DNA of 8,237 nt from a virus (Duplodnaviria > Heunggongvirae > Uroviricota > Caudoviricetes): IMG/VR virus record IMGVR_UViG_2660238318_000005; one strand, given 5' to 3'. Below, in pieces: positions 1-8,237 of this stretch; within the stretch, counting starts at the first letter, position 1, and each line of letters starts with the position of its first letter. The notes beneath the pieces are model-generated. The model was not told where the DNA came from. It did not search any database and saw nothing but the letters and a program-made list of their open reading frames with translations. Made by a program: the position numbers and the translations under genes.

Positions 1-69
1 AGCACCTGTGTTGTTCTGAGGTGAGCATATCACCTCTGTTCAGGTGGCCAAATTCAGTGTGCCACTTCA
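1..69 (+). mobile_element. Right terminus of an IS3-family insertion sequence (IS911-like), element body lies left of the window
   Basis: Reverse complement of 1-69 begins TGAAGTGGCACACTGAATTTGGCCACC..., the TGA...GGCCACC pattern of IS3-family terminal inverted repeats; it matches my recollection of the IS911 IRR, not verified by search. Ends ...CA at 69. Confidence 0.5.
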
Positions 70-89
70 GACATTCTGAGGTGACAGCG

Positions 90-968
90 ATGATGACGTT
101 TAACCTGCGTGAACAACAAAAAAGACTACAGGCGCGAATGGATGAGTTACGGGCAGAGATTGCATTTGCTCAGAAGGGCGAAAAGCCATGGCCTTATCGT
201 TCCTGCCTGATGCGTGAAGGTCGCGGATATTGCGAAAAACATGGCGAATATCACACGCATATACTGGTGTGGAGCGATCGTAATGGCGAGGACAGAGAAG
301 AAATTTCATGCTGCCCTGACTGCTTAATCGCTGAGGCCAACGATTTGACCATGGAGCTGTCGTCCATCAAGGCGGAAGAGCTGACTGATAACGCCGGAAT
401 TGCCCTGCGTTTTCGGGACTGCGAGTTTGATAATTATCTGGAGGTTAATCCTGGCGCAGCCAGAAATCTTGCGGCCTGTCGCCGCTATGCGGAGAACTGG
501 CCAGATATGCTGGAGAACGGTACCAGTCTTGTTATGACCGGCAGTTGTGGTACCGGAAAAAATCATCTGGCTGTGGCTATGGCAAAACACATCATCCGTA
601 ACTATCTGGCCAGTGTGGAGATCACCGACGTGATGCGCCTTACCCGTGCTGTGAAAAATTGCTGGCGGAATGACAGCGAAAAAACAGCGGATGAAGTTAT
701 TGAGCGTTATGCGTCAATGGATTTGCTGATCATCGACGAAGTTGGCGTTCAGTTTGGCAGCGCGGCTGAAATGGCTATTTTGCAGGAAATTATCAACGCC
801 AGGTACGAAAGTATCTTGCCCACCATTCTGATCAGTAACCTCTCACCGGAAGAGTTGTGGGCGTTCATCAGTCCCCGAATTGCCGACAGGATCACAGACG
901 GGGGACGCAACTGGTTGTCGTTTAACTGGCCCAGTTACCGTTCTCGTATCAGAGGTGTGGCTGCATGA
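90..968 (+). CDS. Phage replication protein, DnaC/IstB-family AAA+ helicase loader with an N-terminal Cys/His-rich region
   Basis: Walker A GSCGTGKNHLA and Walker B LLIIDEVG in the translation. ATG at 90 follows GAGGTG (78-83) at good spacing; the track's GTG start at 21 would lie inside the IS end. Stop overlaps the next start (ATGA at 965-968). Confidence 0.75.
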   Translation: MMTFNLREQQKRLQARMDELRAEIAFAQKGEKPWPYRSCLMREGRGYCEKHGEYHTHILVWSDRNGEDREEISCCPDCLIAEANDLTMELSSIKAEELTDNAGIALRFRDCEFDNYLEVNPGAARNLAACRRYAENWPDMLENGTSLVMTGSCGTGKNHLAVAMAKHIIRNYLASVEITDVMRLTRAVKNCWRNDSEKTADEVIERYASMDLLIIDEVGVQFGSAAEMAILQEIINARYESILPTILISNLSPEELWAFISPRIADRITDGGRNWLSFNWPSYRSRIRGVAA

Positions 969-2356
969 CAACTCCAGTATGGCGTAACGATGACCTTGAA
1001 GGCGCTGTCATCGGCGCGTTCTTTCTGCGCGGAGCAGATCCTGAAGTGATGGATATTCTGGCCACACTGCCAGCGGACGTTTTTTCTGTACGAGCGTATC
1101 AGGATATCTATACAGGCATCTGCAGACAGGCCCGTGTTTCAGGAGTGATTGACCCCGTGCTGTTGTGTAATGAGATGCCGGAACTTGCCCCGGTGATTAC
1201 TGATACCGGGCGTAAAACCTGGGTGAAGTCTTCACTGGAGCACTATGTTGCAGCGTTGCGGCGCAATGCCGCACTGCGCGATGCAGAAAAAACACTGAAT
1301 GAGGCGCTGCAGAAATTACGTGATGCGCATACCTGTGAAGCAGCTGAAGATGCCCTGAAGGATGCGCAGAACATGATGGTCACACTGTCGACAGGAAAGG
1401 GCGTCATTCAGCCGGTACATATTGATGATGTGCTTCCGGAAGTGGTTGAGCGTGTTGAATGCCGGAATCAGGGGCTGGAGAAATCCAGGACGTTGATGAC
1501 CGGTATTGATGAACTGGACGCAAAAACAGGCGGTATGGAGCCCGGAGACCTGGTATTCATTGCCGCCCGTCCTTCGATGGGGAAAACCGAACTTGCGCTG
1601 GACATCATCGACAAGGTGACTGAGCAGGGGCATGGTGTGCTTCTGTTCACCATGGAGATGGCGAACATCCAGATTGGTGAACGTATGGTGTCTGCGGCTG
1701 GAGGGATGCCAGTATCACGCCTGAAATCTGTGGCTCACTTTGAAGATGAAGACTGGACGCGTTTCTCACAAGGGGTGGGGCGGATGACCGGGCGCAATAT
1801 CTGGATGGTGGACCAGGCGAACCTGGCCATTGATGAGATATGCGCAACAACGAAACACCACCTGATTAAATATCCGGAAACGGCGCTGGTGGTGGTTGAT
1901 TATCTCGGGCTGATAAAAAACCGAACCACGGGGCGTCATGACCTTGCCGTGGGTGAAATCTCAAAGGGGCTTAAAGGCCTGGCAAAATCCGGTGGTTTTC
2001 CGTTGATTGCGCTGAGCCAGCTCTCCCGCGGTGTGGAGTCCAGACCCAATAAACGTCCCATGAACTCAGACCTGAAAAATTCCGGAGAAATAGAGGCGGA
2101 TGCAGACATCATTCTGATGCTTTACAGGGATGAAGTGTACAACCCGGATACGCAGGCCAGGGGCATCGCAGAAATCAATATCACGAAACAACGTAACGGT
2201 TCTCTGGGAACGATTTACCGGCGTTTTTATAACGGACATTTTCTGCCTGTGGACCAGGAAAGTGCACGGGTGCTTTCCACTCCCATGAAGCCCGGCAATC
2301 CGCGCAGATACAGTAATAAACGAACTGACAGCAGTAAGATGGAGCGTTTCTTTTGA
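965..2356 (+). CDS. DnaB-family replicative DNA helicase (phage P-like function)
   Basis: 463-aa ORF with RecA-fold motifs: Walker A AARPSMGKT, Walker B-like LVVVDYLGL, and a QLSRG segment. Start is coupled to the upstream stop by an ATGA overlap. Confidence 0.85.
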   Translation: MTTPVWRNDDLEGAVIGAFFLRGADPEVMDILATLPADVFSVRAYQDIYTGICRQARVSGVIDPVLLCNEMPELAPVITDTGRKTWVKSSLEHYVAALRRNAALRDAEKTLNEALQKLRDAHTCEAAEDALKDAQNMMVTLSTGKGVIQPVHIDDVLPEVVERVECRNQGLEKSRTLMTGIDELDAKTGGMEPGDLVFIAARPSMGKTELALDIIDKVTEQGHGVLLFTMEMANIQIGERMVSAAGGMPVSRLKSVAHFEDEDWTRFSQGVGRMTGRNIWMVDQANLAIDEICATTKHHLIKYPETALVVVDYLGLIKNRTTGRHDLAVGEISKGLKGLAKSGGFPLIALSQLSRGVESRPNKRPMNSDLKNSGEIEADADIILMLYRDEVYNPDTQARGIAEINITKQRNGSLGTIYRRFYNGHFLPVDQESARVLSTPMKPGNPRRYSNKRTDSSKMERFF

Positions 2357-2610
2357 ACAACCAGACAATGACTTTTACCCCTGAACAATTGCGTAAACAC
2401 GCGCAGGAAATGCTGCGTCATGCTGAACAACTCGAAAAAACGGGCATAACAAAAGATGCTATCCGTAAAGATATGGTACCCGCGCTTCGGGAACTGATGC
2501 AGGCGAAGCATCGCGCACAGAAAGCAGTAGATGAGCTGGTGGACTGTGTGGCAGAGCTGGAAACCAGAGTCGGAAAGTTTGAAAAACTGGTGCAGGAGGC
2601 GCTGCGCTGA
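2353..2610 (+). CDS. Hypothetical small protein, predicted helical/coiled-coil, unknown function
   Basis: ORF in the ren/nin position after the helicase. TTG at 2353 has GGAG 8 nt upstream and overlaps the helicase stop; an alternative ATG at 2368 would give 80 aa. No recognisable motif. Confidence 0.45.
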   Translation: MNNQTMTFTPEQLRKHAQEMLRHAEQLEKTGITKDAIRKDMVPALRELMQAKHRAQKAVDELVDCVAELETRVGKFEKLVQEALR

Positions 2611-2705
2611 TGCGCCATGAGTTTGTTTTGCCCTGGCTTGTGCGCGATCATTATGTCCCTGGTGGAAAGCCCGGGATAAAAATCACCGAACCGGAGAGTA
2701 TTTGA
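2610..2705 (+). pseudogene. rusA: rusA remnant: 31-codon in-frame internal-deletion derivative of a RusA Holliday-junction resolvase gene
   Basis: Peptide MRHEFVLPWLVRDHYVPGGKPGIKITEPESI matches the N-terminus (EFVLPYPP) and C-terminus (VRGQLVPGGRLGIKITELGCA) of the intact rusA at 3862-4227, also at nucleotide level (gaatttgttttgcc; ggataaaaatcac). The roughly 90 codons between are missing. Confidence 0.75.
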
Positions 2706-2905
2706 TGAGCGTCAAAATTCAAACGATACCGGAACTGCTTATCCAGACACGAGGTAATATGACCGAAGTTTCACGAATGCTGAACTGTAATCGCGCCACG
2801 GTAAGAAAATATGCTGAAGATAAAGAGGGCAAAGGGCACGCCATTGTTGATGGTGTTCTGATTGTTCATCGTGGATGGGACAGGGGTAAAGACAGTGATG
2901 CGTGA
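2705..2905 (+). CDS. ninH: NinH-like protein
   Basis: 66-aa product [59 protein letters not shown]... aligns along its length with lambda NinH as I recall it. Start overlaps the rusA-remnant stop (TGATG); it sits directly upstream of Q as in lambdoid phages. Confidence 0.85.
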
Positions 2906-3278
2906 TATTCAGCAGGTTCTTGAGCGCTGGGGCGCGTGGGTGGCTAATAATCATGAGGATGTGACCTGGTCGTCCATTGCTGCCGGTTTTAAGGGATTAA
3001 TCCCTTCAAAAGTAAAATCCCGCCCGCAATGCTGTGACGATGACGCGATGGTTATATGTGGGTGTATGGCCCGCCTTAACCGGAACAACAACGATCTACA
3101 TGACTTGCTGGTTGACTACTACGTGTTTGGGATGACATTCATGACGCTGGCGCGGAAGCATGGATGCTCAGATGGTTATATAGGAAAGAAGCTACAAAAA
3201 GCCGAGGGGGTGGTGGAAGGAATGTTGATGATGTTGGGTGTCCGGTTAGAAATGGACAAATATATTGAACATCCCTGA
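2898..3278 (+). CDS. Late antiterminator Q, short Q21/QuuD-type
   Basis: 126-aa product with cysteine cluster [16 protein letters not shown]; closely resembles the DLP12 QuuD sequence as I recall it. ATG at 2898 overlaps the ninH stop. A tR'-like terminator follows 87 bp downstream. Confidence 0.75.
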
Positions 3279-3364
3279 TGGTAAGGGGCGACTTTCTAGA
3301 AAATATTTTACGTACGTAAAAAACGGGATATTCTGTTAAGAGTGGTTGCTTCGCCACACAGCTT

Positions 3365-3389
3365 AAACCCGCCTCCGGGCGGGTTTTTT
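3365..3389 (+). terminator. Rho-independent terminator, tR'-like, downstream of Q
   Basis: Perfect 9-bp stem AAACCCGCC / GGCGGGTTT around loop TCCG, followed by a T-run. Near-identical in architecture to the terminator at 4975-5000. Confidence 0.7.
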
Positions 3390-3477
3390 ATGCCTGAAAA
3401 ACGGTACAGGACGTTAAACACGCTGGTGGTCAGATGAGTTTGCAGATGTGATGACATATGGTTATTATTCTGCCTCC

Positions 3478-3490
3478 GGCCCTTTAGCTC
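3478..3490 (+). tRNA. 5' fragment (13 nt) of a tRNA gene, truncated by the scaffold gap
   Basis: GGCCCTTTAGCTC is identical to the first 13 nt of the tRNA at 5106-5181. The preceding spacer shares motifs (CGCTGGTGG, GTTATTAT) with the region upstream of that tRNA. Confidence 0.5.
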
Positions 3491-3500
3491 NNNNNNNNNN
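3491..3500. other. Assembly/scaffold gap (N10)
   Basis: Run of 10 N; flanks are unrelated (tRNA 5' end on the left, mid-ORF sequence on the right). Confidence 0.9.
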
Positions 3501-3588
3501 TCCACCACAGGAAGAGACGGTGGTCAGCATTGCCGTTGATCCGGAATCTCCGGCTCAGTATCTCCAGCGCCAGAAACCACAACGGGAA

Positions 3589-3861
3589 GAGATGCCTGTA
3601 TACACGCGCTGGGTAAAAACGCAGAAATGCATGACGTGTGGCAATCAGGCAGATGATCCGCACCACATCATTGGTCATGGACTGGGAGGGATGGGAACAA
3701 AGGCTGACGATTTGTTTGTTATTCCGCTGTGTCGTAAATGCCATAACGAACTACACGCCGGGGTAAAAGATTTTGAAGAAAAACACGGTAGTCAGTTGTT
3801 GTTGCTGATTCGTTTTTTAATGCACGCGAGAAATTCGGGTGTTCTGAAGTGGAAAGCATAA
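3589..3861 (+). CDS. YbcO-like (DUF1364-type) Cys/His-rich putative zinc-binding nuclease-like phage protein; may extend upstream into the gap
   Basis: CxxC...HH...C..CH..H motif (CMTCGNQADDPHHIIGHGLGGMGTKADDLFVIPLCRKCHNELH). Sits immediately upstream of rusA, as ybcO does in DLP12. The frame is open back to the gap at 3501, so the true 5' end is uncertain. Confidence 0.55.
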   Translation, partial: EMPVYTRWVKTQKCMTCGNQADDPHHIIGHGLGGMGTKADDLFVIPLCRKCHNELHAGVKDFEEKHGSQLLLLIRFLMHARNSGVLKWKA

Positions 3862-4227
3862 ATGACCGAACGCATAGAATTTGTTTTGCCTTACCCGCCA
3901 ACGGTGAACACCTACTGGCGACGTCGTGGCAGCACATATTTTGTATCAAAAGCCGGTGAGCGTTATCGCCGTGATGTGGCGCTAATTGTTCGCCAGCAGC
4001 GACTGAAATTAAACCTGTCCGGAAGGCTGGCGATAAAGATTATTGCAGAGCCACCGGATAAGCGCCGTCGTGACCTGGACAATATCCTGAAGGCACCGCT
4101 GGATGCGCTGACGCATGCTGGACTACTTATAGACGACGAGCAGTTTGATGAAATCAATATTGTGCGCGGTCAGCTCGTTCCTGGTGGGCGGCTGGGGATA
4201 AAAATCACAGAACTGGGGTGCGCATGA
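3862..4227 (+). CDS. rusA: RusA-family Holliday junction resolvase
   Basis: 121-aa product with RusA hallmarks (RRRDLDN acidic motif, C-terminal GGRLGIKITELG). ATG follows the upstream stop directly (TAAATG). Confidence 0.85.
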   Translation: MTERIEFVLPYPPTVNTYWRRRGSTYFVSKAGERYRRDVALIVRQQRLKLNLSGRLAIKIIAEPPDKRRRDLDNILKAPLDALTHAGLLIDDEQFDEINIVRGQLVPGGRLGIKITELGCA

Positions 4228-4907
4228 ATAACCAGTATTTACAGTTTGTGCGTGAGCAGCTCATTATCGCCACCGCTGATTTGAGTGGGGCAACAAAAGG
4301 TCAGCTTGAAGCCTGGCAAGAGAATGCCATGTTCGATACAGGGCGTTACAGGCGTAAAAAAATCCGGTACCGCGATGAAGTGACTGGAAAAATGATAACG
4401 CGGGATAATCCACCAATCCCGGGAAAGCAATCGCTGGCGAAGGGGACGTCAATTCCTCTGGTCAGTCCGGTTGAGTTTTCGACATCATCGTGGCGGCGGG
4501 CTGTTCTGTCTCTTGAAGAGCACTATAAAGCCTGGTTGTTGTGGTGTTACAGCGGGAGTATTTGTTGGGAATATCAGATCGCGATAACACAGTGGGCGTG
4601 GAATGAATTTAATGCTCAATCCGGTACCAGAAAAATTGCAGGGAAAACGCAGGAACGCCTGAAAAAATTAATCTGGCTGGCGGCGCAGGCAGTAAAAGCA
4701 GAACTTTTTGGTGGGGAAGGTTATGAATACCAGGAGCTGGCATTACTGGCGGGAGTGACAACTAAAAACTGGTCCAAAACATTTACTCGTCACTGGGTTG
4801 CAATGAAACACATTTTTCACCGACTGGATAGTGAGGCTTTATTGTTTGTAATGAGAACACGTTCAAAAAAAAGACGGCATTTTCAAAGCAAAGTGTTGCA
4901 AAAGTAG
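4224..4907 (+). CDS. Putative late antiterminator Q, long type (Q82/QuuQ-like?)
   Basis: Assigned by position: directly after rusA (ATGA overlap) and directly before a consensus-like promoter, a tR'-like terminator, a tRNA cluster and a holin. I did not recognise the sequence itself. Confidence 0.5.
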   Translation: MNNQYLQFVREQLIIATADLSGATKGQLEAWQENAMFDTGRYRRKKIRYRDEVTGKMITRDNPPIPGKQSLAKGTSIPLVSPVEFSTSSWRRAVLSLEEHYKAWLLWCYSGSICWEYQIAITQWAWNEFNAQSGTRKIAGKTQERLKKLIWLAAQAVKAELFGGEGYEYQELALLAGVTTKNWSKTFTRHWVAMKHIFHRLDSEALLFVMRTRSKKRRHFQSKVLQK

Positions 4908-4924
4908 ATTGAAAGGCATATATT
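4896..4924 (+). promoter_or_regulatory. Candidate sigma70 late promoter (pR'-like) overlapping the Q-like gene's 3' end
   Basis: TTGCAA (4896-4901), 17-bp spacer, TATATT (4919-4924). About 50 bp upstream of the tR'-like terminator, which is the pR'/qut/tR' arrangement. Confidence 0.45.
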
Positions 4925-4974
4925 CATGCAAATCTGATACTTTGCCGATTTTGTACGTGATGGCAAAAGCAAAC

Positions 4975-5000
4975 AAAACCCGCCCACAAGCGGGTTTTTT
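4975..5000 (+). terminator. Rho-independent terminator, tR'-like
   Basis: Perfect 9-bp stem AAAACCCGC / GCGGGTTTT around loop CCACAA, then a T-run. Confidence 0.7.
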
Positions 5001-5105
5001 GTGCCACTTATCTCGGATAGACATGGTGAATGCGCTGGTGGAGGAGATAAGGGTGATTTTTGAATGCTTGCAACATTGATTTCGTAACGTTATTATCCTG
5101 CGCCC

Positions 5106-5181
5106 GGCCCTTTAGCTCAGTGGTGAGAGCGAGCGACTCATAATCGCCAGGTCGCTGGTTCAAATCCAGCAAGGGCCACCA
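5106..5181 (+). tRNA. tRNA with CAU anticodon, most similar to tRNA-Ile2 (lysidine type, ileX/ileZ-like)
   Basis: Cloverleaf by hand: acceptor GGCCCTT/AAGGGCC, anticodon loop CUCAUAA, T-loop TTCAAAT, 3' CCA encoded. Resembles E. coli ileX as I recall it; Met versus Ile2 cannot be settled from the anticodon alone. Confidence 0.75.
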
Positions 5182-5183
5182 AC

Positions 5184-5259
5184 CGCCACTAGCTCATCAG
5201 GAAAGAGCGTCAACCCTTTAAGTTGAGTGTGCGAGGTTCGAGTCCCCGGTGGCGGTCCA
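5184..5259 (+). tRNA. tRNA-like gene with atypical anticodon loop (CCUUUAA: UUU anticodon with C33); identity uncertain
   Basis: Acceptor CCGCCAC/GTGGCGG, D-arm GCTC...GAGC, anticodon stem TCAAC/GTTGA, T-loop TTCGAGT, 3' CCA. The loop lacks the near-universal U33. Confidence 0.55.
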
Positions 5260-5261
5260 GT

Positions 5262-5337
<76 letters not shown>

Positions 5338-5340
5338 TAT

Positions 5341-5415
<75 letters not shown>

Positions 5416-5474
5416 GTCAGAGTCTTTCAGTCTGCGATGATGGGAAATCCCGGAGTGACTGAAAGACGTTTAAG

Positions 5475-5547
5475 TTATGAATGATCGCCTTTTTTTGCAA
5501 AATTGCTGTGCAGAAATACTAACCTTCGGGCGTGCGATCATTCATAA
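5475..5547. repeat. Perfect 14-bp inverted repeat with 45-nt spacer in the tRNA-to-holin intergenic region
   Basis: TTATGAATGATCGC (5475-5488) is the exact reverse complement of GCGATCATTCATAA (5534-5547). A second 11-bp inverted repeat lies at 5422-5432 / 5457-5467. Confidence 0.6.
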
Positions 5548-5707
5548 GCACTCTGCTTTTATTCCGATTAACTGTGGGTGGTTTGTTGGATAGAGTGCTT
5601 TCCTTACTGTATATATCGTTTCGCCCGCTTTTGCGTTTTTTTCTTTTCAAATCCCTTTCATTTCTCAGTGTAAAACTACGCCATCCGTTATTTGCGGAGG
5701 TGAGGCT

Positions 5708-5923
5708 ATGAAATCCATGGACAAAATTTCAACGGGCATTGCCTACGGCACCTCCGCAGGCAGTGCTGGCTACTGGTTTTTACAGTGGCTTGATCAGGTC
5801 AGTCCGTCACAGTGGGCTGCGATTGGTGTACTGGGGAGTCTGGTTCTGGGCTTCCTGACTTATCTGACAAATCTGTACTTCAAAATCAGAGAAGACAAGC
5901 GTAAGGCTGCGAGAGGTGAATAA
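5708..5923 (+). CDS. S: Class II pinholin, phage 21 S-type (S21-like), with dual-start motif
   Basis: 71-aa product [30 protein letters not shown]... matches S21 as I recall it; the two Met codons (M1, M4) fit the antiholin/holin pair. Strong RBS GGAGGTGAGG upstream; stop overlaps the endolysin start (TAATG). Confidence 0.85.
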
Positions 5924-5939
5924 TGTCGCCATCATTACG
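5923..5939 (+). pseudogene. 5' stub (17 nt) of an R21-type SAR endolysin gene, interrupted
   Basis: ATGTCGCCATCATTACG is identical to the start of the endolysin copy at 6143; it is followed at 5940 by the GTAAGCG... element instead of CAAGGCTGTT. Confidence 0.6.
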
Positions 5940-6006
5940 GTAAGCGCCCCATCAGCGACGTCTTGTGAAAATTGTCCTGTCTGGCAACAATCGCGCCCAT
6001 CTATAT
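5940..6006 (+). mobile_element. Terminus of a repeated element, proposed IS66-family insertion sequence end (copy 1)
   Basis: GTAAGCGCCCCATCAGCGACGTCTTGTGAAAATTGTCCTGTCTGGCAACAATCGCGCCCATCTATA recurs at 6437-6502; both copies run into N10 gaps. IS66-family ends characteristically begin 5'-GTAA; family assignment is from memory. Confidence 0.4.
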
Positions 6007-6016
6007 NNNNNNNNNN
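6007..6016. other. Assembly/scaffold gap (N10)
   Basis: Run of 10 N between the repeated element end and a holin-internal sequence. Confidence 0.9.
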
Positions 6017-6017
6017 G

Positions 6018-6143
6018 GTCAGTCCATCACAGTGGGCTGCGATTGGTGTGCTGGGAAGTCTGCTTCTGGGGCTTCTGACTTATCTGACGAATCTGTATTT
6101 CAAAATAAGAGAAGATAAGCGTAAGGCTGCGAGAGGTGAATAA
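6018..6143 (+). CDS. S21-type pinholin, 3' portion of a second diverged copy, 5'-truncated by the gap
   Basis: Encodes ...[41 protein letters not shown], with several nucleotide and amino-acid differences from the copy at 5797-5923, so it is a paralogue and not the same locus. Confidence 0.7.
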
Positions 6144-6436
6144 TGTCGCCATCATTACGCAAGGCTGTTGCAGTTGCTATTGGTGGCGGGGCTGTTGCTA
6201 TAGCATCTGTGTTAATCACTGGCCCAGGTGGTAACGATGGTCTGGAAGGTGTCAGCTACATACCATACAAAGATATCATTGGTGTATGGACTGTATGTCA
6301 CGGACACACCGGAAAAGACATCATGCCTGGTAAAACGTATACCGAAGCAGAATGCAAAGCTCTCCTGAATAAAGACCTTGTCACTGTCGCCAGACAAATT
6401 AACCCGTACATCAAAGTCGATATACCGGAAACAACG
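6143..6436 (+). pseudogene. R21-type SAR endolysin (T4-lysozyme-like), N-terminal 98 codons, interrupted after ...DIPETT
   Basis: SAR-like N-terminus ([20 protein letters not shown]) and catalytic region [16 protein letters not shown] (E-x8-D-x5-T). Homology ends at 6436, where the GTAAGCG... element begins. Confidence 0.7.
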
Positions 6437-6502
6437 GTAAGCGCCCCATCAGCGACGTCTTGTGAAAATTGTCCTGTCTGGCAACAATCGCGCCCATCTA
6501 TA
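6437..6502 (+). mobile_element. Terminus of the same repeated element, proposed IS66-family end (copy 2)
   Basis: Same sequence as 5940-6005, again abutting an N10 gap. Confidence 0.4.
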
Positions 6503-6512
6503 NNNNNNNNNN
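6503..6512. other. Assembly/scaffold gap (N10)
   Basis: Run of 10 N. Confidence 0.9.
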
Positions 6513-6513
6513 C

Positions 6514-6540
6514 AAGCGTAAGGCTGCACGGGGAGAGTAA
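6514..6540 (+). CDS. Last 8 codons plus stop of a third S21-type holin copy, 5'-truncated by the gap
   Basis: Encodes KRKAARGE-stop, the same C-terminal tail as the holins at 5708 and 6018, with different nucleotides (GCACGGGGAGAG versus GCGAGAGGTGAA). Confidence 0.5.
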   Translation, partial: KRKAARGE

Positions 6541-6543
6541 ATA

Positions 6544-7173
6544 ATGAAGCATGAAGAAATGAATCAGCGATTCAATCACCTGGAAAATGAAATCACTGAG
6601 CTTAATAAAAAATTGTCGGCGTTGGTGAGTTCTGAAGATGAAAACAAACGCCGCGATGAGCATTATGCGGCGATTTACGATTACTGCCACAAAGTCGCTC
6701 ACGAGACTTTTATGAAGTTTTTGCAGGAAAAGTTTTTACCGGCCGCATTGTCAGAAAAAGAGGCGGCTTACCTGCGGCCTGAGTACGTCATTACGGTTAA
6801 CAGTGCCGGAGAGGAAGAGCATAAAAGTGATTTTATTGCGTCTGCACCGGATAAAGACCAGGAACCCCATCGGCCTTTCAGGGTTTCCTGTGAAGAGGGT
6901 GAGTTCGTCGTTTATGAGAACGGAAAACCTGTCCGGGCATCGCATCATCACTGCCTGAAAATTATTAATCTCGCTATCAGATGCCTGAAAGACGAAAACA
7001 CCAGAGTTATGAAACGCATTGGCCGTTGCATGGGGTATTTGCAGGTGGCGGCAGAGATTGAAGCACTTGCCAGTGGTGCAGACATGGATGCTGCGGTGCG
7101 GGAGGCTCTTCTTCGTGATTTCAATACTCCCCCTTTAAGAAAGAGCCTGATGACTGGATCCAGCCGGGGCTGA
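6544..7173 (+). CDS. Hypothetical 209-aa protein between holin and endolysin; no recognisable family, no signal peptide or TM segment
   Basis: Uninterrupted ORF with GGAG upstream of ATG 6544, starting 3 nt after the holin stop. Hydrophilic, with an N-terminal coiled-coil-like stretch (NQRFNHLENEITELNKKLSAL) and an HHHC motif. Confidence 0.5.
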   Translation: MKHEEMNQRFNHLENEITELNKKLSALVSSEDENKRRDEHYAAIYDYCHKVAHETFMKFLQEKFLPAALSEKEAAYLRPEYVITVNSAGEEEHKSDFIASAPDKDQEPHRPFRVSCEEGEFVVYENGKPVRASHHHCLKIINLAIRCLKDENTRVMKRIGRCMGYLQVAAEIEALASGADMDAAVREALLRDFNTPPLRKSLMTGSSRG

Positions 7174-7238
7174 CTTATCTTAAAAGGCGTATATAAGTTG
7201 GCTCGTTATTTGTTGCCGATAAATCCTGATAAATATCC

Positions 7239-7772
7239 ATGAGCGCAAAAATCAAATACGGCCTGTCGGCTGCTGTTCTGGCGCTGATTGCCGCAGGCGC
7301 GTCTGCTCCCCAGATACTTGACCAGTTTCTGAACGAAAAAGAGGGTAATCACACAACGGCATACCGTGATGGTTCTGGCATATGGACCATCTGTCGTGGT
7401 GCCACAATGGTGGATGGTAAGCCTGTCATACCGGGAATGAAGCTGTCGAAGGAAAAATGTGACCAGGTTAACGCTATTGAACGTGATAAGGCGCTGGCAT
7501 GGGTGGAGCGCAATATTAAAGTACCTCTGACCGAACCCCAGAAAGCGGGTATAGCGTCATTTTGCCCCTATAACATTGGCCCCGGTAAGTGTTTCCCGTC
7601 GACGTTTTATAAGCGGCTGAATGCCGGTGATCGTAAGGGCGCATGCGAGGCGATTCGCTGGTGGATAAAAGATGTTGGGCGCGATTGCCGCATACGTTCA
7701 AATAACTGCTATGGACAGGTTATTCGTCGTGACCAGGAAAGCGCATTAGCCTGTTGGGGGATAGATCAATGA
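7239..7772 (+). CDS. SAR-type endolysin (glycoside hydrolase family 24, T4-lysozyme-like)
   Basis: Gly/Ala-rich weakly hydrophobic N-terminus ([17 protein letters not shown]) typical of signal-anchor-release domains, then the E-x8-D-x5-T catalytic motif ([16 protein letters not shown]). Stop overlaps the Rz start (ATGA). The RBS is weak. Confidence 0.8.
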
Positions 7773-8173
7773 GCAGAGTCACCGCGATTATCTCCGCTCT
7801 GGTTATCTGCATCATCGTCTGCCTGTCATGGGCTGTTAATCATTACCGTGATAACGCCATTACCTACAAAGAGCAGCGCGACAAAAACGCCGGAGAACTG
7901 AAGCTGGCGAACGCAACCATTACTGACATGCAGCAGCGCCAGCGTGATGCTGATGCACTCGATGCTAAATACACGAAGGAGTTAGCTGATGCGAAAGCTG
8001 AAAATGATGCTCTTCGGCGCAAGCTTGATAATGGTGGTCGGGTGCTCGTCAAAGGAAAATGCCCTGTGCCATCCTCAGCCGAAACCTCCAGCGCCTCCGG
8101 CATGGGCAATGATGCCACCGTCGAACTCTCTCCAGTTGCTGGACGAAACGTTCTCGGTATCCGGGACGGGTGA
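7769..8173 (+). CDS. Rz: Rz i-spanin (inner-membrane spanin subunit); C-terminus possibly truncated by the adjacent IS
   Basis: N-terminal TM segment ([20 protein letters not shown]), then a charged coiled-coil region. Follows the endolysin and contains the embedded Rz1 frame. The stop TGA (8171-8173) is also the first three bases of the IS end. Confidence 0.8.
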
Positions 8174-8183
8174 GGTAGCCTGA
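7989..8183 (+). CDS. Rz1: Rz1 o-spanin (outer-membrane lipoprotein) embedded in the +1 frame of Rz
   Basis: Signal peptide with lipobox LIMVVGC, proline-rich mature part ([16 protein letters not shown]) resembling lambda Rz1 as I recall it, and a strong SD AAGGAG 8 nt upstream. The last codons (..GEVA-stop) are read from the IS end. Confidence 0.8.
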
Positions 8184-8237
8184 GTTTAACGGACACTCCT
8201 TCCTGAAATAGAATGGCATCAGAAGGAGCTAATAATG
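8171..8237 (+). mobile_element. Left terminus of an IS3-family insertion sequence (IS600-like), with the start of its orfA at 8235
   Basis: TGAGGTAGCCTGAGTTTAACGGACACTCC... has the IS3-family TGA-initiated inverted-repeat form, then an RBS GGAG and ATG at 8235. It resembles the IS600 IRL as I recall it, not verified. Confidence 0.5.

Follow-up and report, generated by a model that had tools for sequence, protein, structure and literature searches.

Two ISSfl3 junctions in phage 21-type endolysin genes of decayed Shigella flexneri prophages, juxtaposed in a draft scaffold

The window, i.e., the whole stretch of 8,237 nt analysed here, carries two endolysin genes that are broken off by one and the same sequence, which raises the question whether one element was inserted independently into two related genes or whether a single repeat end was joined to two contexts during assembly. 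As a draft scaffold assembled from short reads of Shigella flexneri, the window consists of the blocks A (1-3490), B (3501-6006), C (6017-6502), and D (6513-8237), joined by N10 gaps at 3491-3500, 6007-6016, and 6503-6512. The identical tract, beginning with GTAAGCGCCCC... (in a longer reading GTAAGCGCCCCATCAGCGACG...), replaces the endolysin sequence after nt 17 at the end of block B and, in the second copy, after codon 98 at the end of block C. It covers positions 5940-6006 (67 nt) in block B and 6437-6502 (66 nt) in block C; the two occurrences agree in all 66 nt that they have in common, and each ends at a gap, just as a preceding sequence-only reading had described and as the window sequence confirms. 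Within the window, GTAAGCG occurs at positions 5940 and 6437 only, and an exact repeat of 66 nt within 8.2 kb cannot have arisen by chance.

The first tract is preceded by ATGTCGCCATCATTACG, corresponding to nt 1-17 of the endolysin ORF, the start of which is identical to that of the second copy at 6143. The second tract follows on 294 nt, or 98 codons, of an ORF in which Pfam recognizes a Phage_lysozyme domain. ACG precedes both tracts, and the leftward identity ends after these 3 nt. An assignment of ACG to the end of the insertion sequence (IS) is ruled out, since ACG is present in both uninterrupted genes (...CATTACG followed by CAAGG and ...ACAACG followed by CGCGG) and other copies of the element are flanked differently. 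The common ACG is target sequence, the match being a weak one (1/64 for one pair).

Both interrupted genes belong to lysis cassettes of the phage 21 type. Block B harbors an intact class II (phage 21 S-type) holin gene (5708-5923, plus strand, 71 aa) that matches PF04971 with E=1.4e-35 and 121.5 bits, compared to a gathering cut-off of 26, and is named class II holin family protein in RefSeq. It is followed by nt 1-17 of an rrrD/R21-type endolysin gene (5923-5939, plus strand), the last 8 nt of which (5932-5939) are TCATTACG, the duplicated target. In block C, a second holin allele is represented by its 3'-terminal 127 nt (6017-6143, plus strand), which are 93% identical to the block B holin gene and lead into codons 1-98 of a second rrrD/R21-type endolysin gene (6143-6436, plus strand, PF00959), with AAACAACG at 6429-6436 as the presumed target. 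In other assemblies an inverted IS600 end is situated 2 nt to the left of 6017. In both cassettes the holin is located directly upstream, its stop codon overlapping the endolysin start at 5921-5925 and 6141-6145.

An intact endolysin allele (L004:6001-6498) is 99.7% identical to window positions 6143-6436 (294 nt). Its residues 1-165 match the phage 21 lysozyme (PDB 3hde, E=4e-107) and RrrD (4zpu, E=5.6e-108), so that the label "R21-type" given by the sequence-only reading is right: both matches run end to end with E~1e-107. The full-length homology to the phage 21 lysozyme covers the N-terminal signal-anchor-release (SAR) segment. Of this protein, the window copies retain residues 1-5 and 1-98 only; the second copy has lost 67 of 165 residues, and PF00959 positions 66-125, the C-terminal half of the lysozyme domain, are missing. 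We infer that endolysin function would be lost in both copies. The holin match to PF04971 ("Bacteriophage P21 holin S") and the order holin-endolysin-Rz resemble the phage 21 arrangement of S21 pinholin and R21 SAR endolysin, the cryptic-prophage counterpart of which is essD-rrrD-rzpD of E. coli DLP12. In contrast to phage 21 and DLP12, the endolysins described here are truncated (17 nt; 98 codons plus a 44-residue IS-encoded tail) and their cassettes lie in prophage remnants.

The 67-mer of the tract is present in 667 of 5,426 complete E. coli genomes, with up to 16 occurrences per genome. In FDAARGOS_943 (L002) it represents the first 67 nt (100% match) of a 2754-bp element reading GTAAGCG...CGCTTAC, which is flanked on both sides by GGGAAGTC, a perfect 8-bp target-site duplication (TSD). 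The ends of this element were located by motif, as a repeat search missed them: the left inverted repeat (IRL) GTAAGCGCCCCATCAGCG... and the reverse complement of the right one (IRR), GTAAGCGCCCCGAGAAG..., are identical in their first 11 nt. Its ORFs are named IS66 TnpA, IS66 TnpB, and "IS66-like element ISSfl3 family transposase" in RefSeq, and Pfam assigned HTH_Tnp_1 to TnpA, TnpB_IS66 (E=5e-39) to TnpB, and DDE_Tnp_IS66 (E=2.5e-101) together with zf-IS66, LZ_Tnp_IS66, and DDE_Tnp_IS66_C to the transposase. The window itself holds just 66-67 nt per IS copy, and the tnpA-tnpB-tnpC genes follow both junctions in finished genomes. A GTAAGCG start also occurs in other members of the IS66 family (PMC12888890). 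The name ISSfl3 is based on the RefSeq product name (WP_004967149.1, "IS66-like element ISSfl3 family transposase") and on a nucleotide identity of ~99.5%. Compared to a copy bearing WP_004967149.1, the junction-1 copy is 99.5-99.6% identical and the segments of the junction-2 copy are 98.3% and 99.4% identical.

Judged by its sequence, the tract constitutes the left terminus, with the inverted repeat, of ISSfl3, an IS of the IS66 family with 2754 bp. The earlier assignment to an IS66-family end thereby stands: GTAAGCG termini and tnpA/tnpB/tnpC were found, as was an 8-bp TSD in FDAARGOS_943 and in CP054892.1 (L031), with the exception of the junction-2 copy in CP007037.1 (L028). ISSfl3 received its name first in Shigella flexneri. 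Hawkey et al. (2020, PMC7373316), who print the name as "ISSlf3", count it among 12 ISs recorded for the reference genomes of S. flexneri. Its first 66-67 nt are identical to the window tracts, the full copies at these junctions are 98.3-99.6% identical, and nothing differs in kind, except that both copies described here are defective due to a nested IS600 and an internal replacement, respectively.

The left end of ISSfl3 copy 1 (5940-6006, plus strand, 67 nt, comprising the IRL and 5' untranslated DNA) runs into the gap. Its flank, ...GCCATCATTACG followed by GTAAGCG, was observed at 11 of the loci analysed, which represent 10 complete chromosomes and in which it lies in a prophage with the order DUF968-RusA-Q-tRNA, elsewhere than junction 2. 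In case of CP054892.1, TCATTACG stands directly before the IRL (position 10106 of locus L031) and recurs directly after the IRR, which ends at 14126; there it continues into CAAGGCTG... (in a longer reading CAAGGCTGTTGC...). The 8-bp duplication that the sequence-only reading had proposed to look for at the far end is present on both sides of this IS. Moreover, the DNA to the right, with the remaining part of rrrD and with the Rz, HNH, and terminase genes, is 99.7% collinear with its counterpart in FDAARGOS_944 (L003), whose prophage is uninterrupted. Junction 1 is a simple transposition, proven by its TSD. The insertion leaves an ORF of 6 codons, and as far as the sequence tells, the cassette at junction 1 therefore cannot make endolysin. 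The reciprocal junction (IRR, TSD, and rest of the gene) gave zero exact-pattern matches in viral contigs.

An IS600 is nested in ISSfl3 copy 1 at its nt 1934. In the remaining nine chromosomes, all DNA to the right of the nested IS600 (IS1 in two records) is replaced. The right arms of junction 1 (loci L029-L038) consist of the original endolysin-Rz-terminase region, of Mu-like tail sheath/tube genes, or of an ipaH (NEL-domain) region. These three arms are a natural series of later IS600/IS1-mediated rearrangements, and stepwise decay can be followed from the intact prophage of FDAARGOS_944 over the TSD-flanked insertion in CP054892.1 to the IS600-mediated right-arm replacement in the nine other chromosomes.

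The left end of ISSfl3 copy 2 (6437-6502, plus strand, 66 nt) likewise runs into a gap. By a search with a 31-aa holin-fragment ORF from the window, the finished chromosome CP007037.1 was reached, whose locus L028 is 100% identical to block C at positions 9970-10455. There, pgl, ybhH, ybhI, ybhJ, ybhC, a truncated integrase gene, IS600, the holin fragment, the truncated endolysin gene, and ISSfl3 follow one another; the locus is a tiny prophage remnant adjoining ybhC. The predicted fusion of endolysin and IS sequence comprises 142 aa and is identical to P0121, that is AAP16400.1 of S. flexneri 2457T (UniProt Q7UD42, Q7UD42_SHIFL). P0121 is found on 44 contigs of up to 4.73 Mb, with shorter partials in many S. 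flexneri drafts, and the search with the fusion protein gave a cluster of 17 proteins, nearly all named S. flexneri, one of which is a 120-aa partial lysozyme (P0134). Two contigs of 685 bp from other assemblies (L018, L019) contain an inverted IS600 end, the holin 3' fragment, endolysin codons 1-98, and 122 nt of ISSfl3.

At the far end of copy 2, the situation is different from that at junction 1. In CP007037.1, the sole complete context obtained, a different IS stands in place of nt 1615-2589 of ISSfl3, and beyond the IRR the sequence continues not with AAACAACG but with CTGGAGAA, inside ycaK according to the annotation, the 3' part of the endolysin gene being absent. The TSD anticipated for each IS copy was hence seen for copy 1 and is missing at the far end of copy 2, so that a simple insertion at junction 2 is presumed rather than demonstrated. 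The reciprocal of junction 2 was defined as the right end of ISSfl3 followed by AAACAACGCGCGGCGCTC, written out as GGGGCGCTTAC, AAACAACG, and CGCGGCGCTC in succession. The pattern of the IRR followed by AAACAACGCGCGG gave zero exact matches in viral or metagenome contigs, and the same holds for junction 2 itself in metagenome and viral contigs. Among all fetched loci, the search for the 3' remainder of the endolysin gene yielded only the locus in CP054892.1 and an unrelated Rz region disrupted by IS2/ISSfl3 (L017).

Most likely, copy 2 was transposed into the target AAACAACG and its right flank was exchanged later by an IS-mediated rearrangement, a reading to which we are led by the like exchange that demonstrably happened at junction 1. 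Alternatively, ISSfl3 would have been located in ycaK first, from where an intramolecular attack of its left end on the endolysin gene, by transposition, inversion, or adjacent deletion, would have created the junction without producing a TSD. Such a course would explain why the IS in CP007037.1 joins codon 98 to ycaK with AAACAACG on its left and CTGGAGAA on its right, and it would fit the absence of the endolysin 3' end from the locus, the fragmentation of ycaK into at least three pieces among ISs, and the fact that four other S. flexneri copies of ISSfl3 with both ends visible (five loci) lack a TSD as well. However, recombination of two ISSfl3 copies after a normal insertion would look alike and is simpler, junction 1 having kept its TSD in one strain and exchanged its right side in nine others. 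An original insertion into ycaK should be marked by an IRL preceded by ...GATGAACCTCTGGAGAA, and in none of the tabulated ISSfl3 copies does the DNA before the IRL end in CTGGAGAA. We therefore consider an origin in ycaK possible, yet rather unlikely, and keep to the transposition into AAACAACG with subsequent exchange of the right flank.

The surroundings of copy 2 in CP007037.1 are heavily rearranged. Between 13452 and 20096 of locus L028, ycaK occurs in at least three pieces of differing orientation among IS1, IS600, and ISSfl3. The adjacent LysR gene (ycaN) is split by IS1, and some E. coli genomes have an IS1 in this LysR gene as well. The missing ycaK piece or a matching TSD for the right flank of junction 2 was not found, the adjoining 128 bp not being present in the locus.

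As to the arrangement of the window, only 778 bp separate blocks A and D in all 8 complete S. flexneri chromosomes shown (2457T and seven others), where the two blocks match with an identity of 99.8-100%. The spacer of 778 bp contains a tRNA cluster and a holin gene that are ~95.6% like their block B counterparts. In the finished genome AE014073.1 (L027), blocks A and D correspond to positions 5702-11694 of the locus. In the window, this piece of tRNA and holin genes is missing, and blocks B and C from other loci occupy its place. Blocks A and D are one prophage, and the block order of the window is artificial. The joins of A to B and of C to D are absent from finished genomes, and blocks B and C, on either side of the middle gap, are different chromosomal loci. 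Due to the distance of 778 bp between A and D and the origin of B and C from two other loci, the order is explained as a scaffolding artefact, most likely caused by a scaffolder that threaded through similar prophage repeats.

All block ends located in ISs stop 66-69 nt inside the element (1-69, 5940-6006, 6437-6502, and 8171-8237), which is the usual sign of short-read contigs breaking at multi-copy repeats; IS ends are known to break short-read assemblies in Shigella (PMC7373316). The first of these, on the minus strand, is the end of an IS911-family (IS3 family) element, with the scaffold beginning 69 nt within it; window positions 1-69 are repeated elsewhere in finished genomes, and the adjoining DNA in AE014073.1 is annotated as IS3-like element IS911 family transposase. 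The last (plus strand, 67 nt) is the left end of IS600, named IS3-like element IS600 family transposase in RefSeq, and the scaffold ends within it. The uniformity of the stops resembles a fixed assembler overlap length. The left end of block C differs in that it begins 2 nt past the IS600 end seen in other assemblies.

Considering the artificial block order, the junctions themselves could have been suspected as well, i.e., one repeat end might have been misjoined to two collapsed endolysin contexts with neither junction existing in the cell. Such an origin would be in line with a gapped scaffold whose block order is demonstrably unlike that of finished genomes and with the fact that both tracts stop at gaps. 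Yet 10 complete chromosomes, independent of one another, contain junction 1, and one of these also shows a flawless TSD together with the remainder of the endolysin gene. Junction 2 is attested by the finished sequence of CP007037.1, by AAP16400.1 of 2457T, and by the 685-bp contigs, which extend 122 nt into the IS. An artefact is already refuted for the species, and its probability for the junctions is negligible. The artefact alternative raised by the sequence-only reading thus fails for the junctions and holds in spirit for their juxtaposition, which is a product of scaffolding. Neither junction occurs in the 5,426 complete E. coli genomes, where matches stop exactly at the junction and only intact alleles are present, which serve as uninterrupted references.

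The loci of the two junctions are distinct: junction 2 is situated beside ybhC and a truncated integrase gene, junction 1 in another prophage, and their holin alleles are 93% identical. The claim of two separate events in paralogous endolysin genes is supported by these different chromosomal positions. The spread of a single insertion by gene conversion is ruled out, as the breaks lie at nt 17 and nt 294, the loci differ, and each copy carries its own nested IS.

Taken as a whole, the best explanation, to which we assign a probability of about 93%, is that of two real ISSfl3 junctions in two decayed prophages, the adjacency of which is a scaffolding artefact. Two different copies of ISSfl3 are located in two paralogous phage-21-type cassettes (pinholin and SAR endolysin RrrD/R21) of two decayed lambdoid prophages. 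Copy 1 transposed into the endolysin gene after nt 17 under duplication of TCATTACG, as observed in CP054892.1, and copy 2 is joined to the other gene after codon 98, giving rise to the observed 142-aa fusion ORF without the C-terminal 67 residues. Both copies were inactivated later by nested ISs, and the prophages around them were eroded by IS600, IS1, and IS911. The events are probably old, and they are fixed in many S. flexneri genomes. The contigs of the scaffold end 66-69 nt inside multi-copy insertion sequences.

Two hits of one element in endolysin genes had also given rise to the suggestion of a target preference or of selection for lysis-defective prophages. With regard to target preference, 13 distinct ISSfl3 left flanks from S. 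flexneri, Shigella-like "E. coli", E. albertii, and E. coli share no common motif, ACG occurs among them at the two endolysin sites only, and the 8-bp targets TCATTACG, AAACAACG (presumed), and GGGAAGTC are unrelated to one another. The suggested preference is not borne out by these flanks, which lack a consensus, and sequence-directed targeting by ISSfl3 is unsupported. Of the other ISSfl3 copies of S. flexneri, some are inserted in IS2 or in an IS911-type element; others occupy the intergenic DNA 3' of trkA and rplQ or the vicinity of a HAD-hydrolase gene.

It is nevertheless tempting to speculate that the double hit was not neutral, either because ISSfl3 prefers some sequence or structure of the endolysin genes or because lysis knock-outs are positively selected in Shigella. 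Two of about 9 distinct S. flexneri ISSfl3 sites fall into endolysin paralogs of ~0.5 kb, and further IS hits in lysis genes point in the same direction, namely IS600 in the block C holin gene and in the block D Rz gene (8170/8171), a holin fragment adjoining IS600 in AE014073.1, IS2 at the R/Rz boundary in L017, and IS600 in the class II holin gene of two E. coli genomes. However, neither the three 8-bp targets nor the 13 left flanks share a motif, the ACG match has a probability of 1/64, and surviving ISs are expected to pile up in dispensable DNA, with other copies indeed located in IS2, an IS911-type element, and intergenic DNA. A non-neutral double hit is therefore improbable in our view. 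IS hits in lysis cassettes may reflect selection against functional lysis genes, or survival in dispensable DNA only. The broader notion that the lambdoid lysis cassettes of Shigella are preferential or positively selected, non-neutral IS targets, with prophage lysis disarmed in the course of IS expansion, we hold to be more doubtful still.

In block D, the left end of IS600 interrupts an Rz-type lysis gene (7754-8173) between 8170 and 8171, so that all three lysis cassettes of the window bear an IS hit. The 177-aa endolysin gene of this block (7239-7772) and its holin gene are intact in finished genomes. In two complete E. coli genomes, NZ_AP027185.1 (3711072-3711361) and NZ_OY754853.1 (5529665-5529954), the class II holin gene that precedes rrrD has an IS600 within it or at its side. 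The position of this IS600 is unlike the one in Shigella and thus indicates that a lysis cassette of this type was hit independently.

In Shigella, multi-copy IS1, IS2, IS600, IS911, and ISSfl3 interrupt genes and one another and mediate rearrangements (Hawkey et al. 2020, PLoS Genet, PMC7373316). Lysis genes are not singled out in that study, and the two junctions represent single instances of the general process, i.e., ordinary IS-driven prophage decay that is already known from deposited sequences. The element, the gene family, and the process of IS expansion are all well described, and the import of the junctions hardly exceeds housekeeping: the junction-2 fusion is already in GenBank as the 2457T protein AAP16400.1, and the 142-aa S. 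flexneri entries named lysozyme or glycoside hydrolase family protein are products of an IS-truncated pseudogene. Furthermore, N10-joined scaffolds of IS-rich genomes can interleave contigs of different prophages, and apparent tandem "paralogs" in such windows should therefore not be read as neighbors.

Two further arrangements of ISSfl3 were observed in CP182556.1. At one locus (L017, 4507-7539), a complete ISSfl3 without TSD is nested in IS2, the right end of which abuts codon 3 of an Rz gene, while the expected endolysin gene on the other side is missing. At the other (L007), two inverted ISSfl3 copies (3052-5805 and ~3400-6146) with exact IRL matches at 3052-3089 (plus strand) and 6109-6146 (minus strand) are placed back to back where the 3' end of trkA faces that of rplQ. 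A TSD is lacking in both copies, and the mscL-zntR interval therefore seems to be displaced.

Block B comprises the 3' end of a DUF968 gene, RusA, the antiterminator Q gene, four tRNA genes, the holin gene, and the endolysin start. The phage tRNA cluster located 3' of the Q gene (5106-5415) contains tRNAs with a CAT anticodon, Lys-TTT, Thr-TGT, and Gly-TCC; the tRNA with the CAT anticodon is assigned to Met by ARAGORN and to Ile by RefSeq. Block A stops 13 nt into the homologous first tRNA (3478-3490). Between the holin and endolysin genes of block D, an ORF of 209 aa (6544-7173) without Pfam match is exactly conserved; the index of the assembly collection has it in 3334 blocks.
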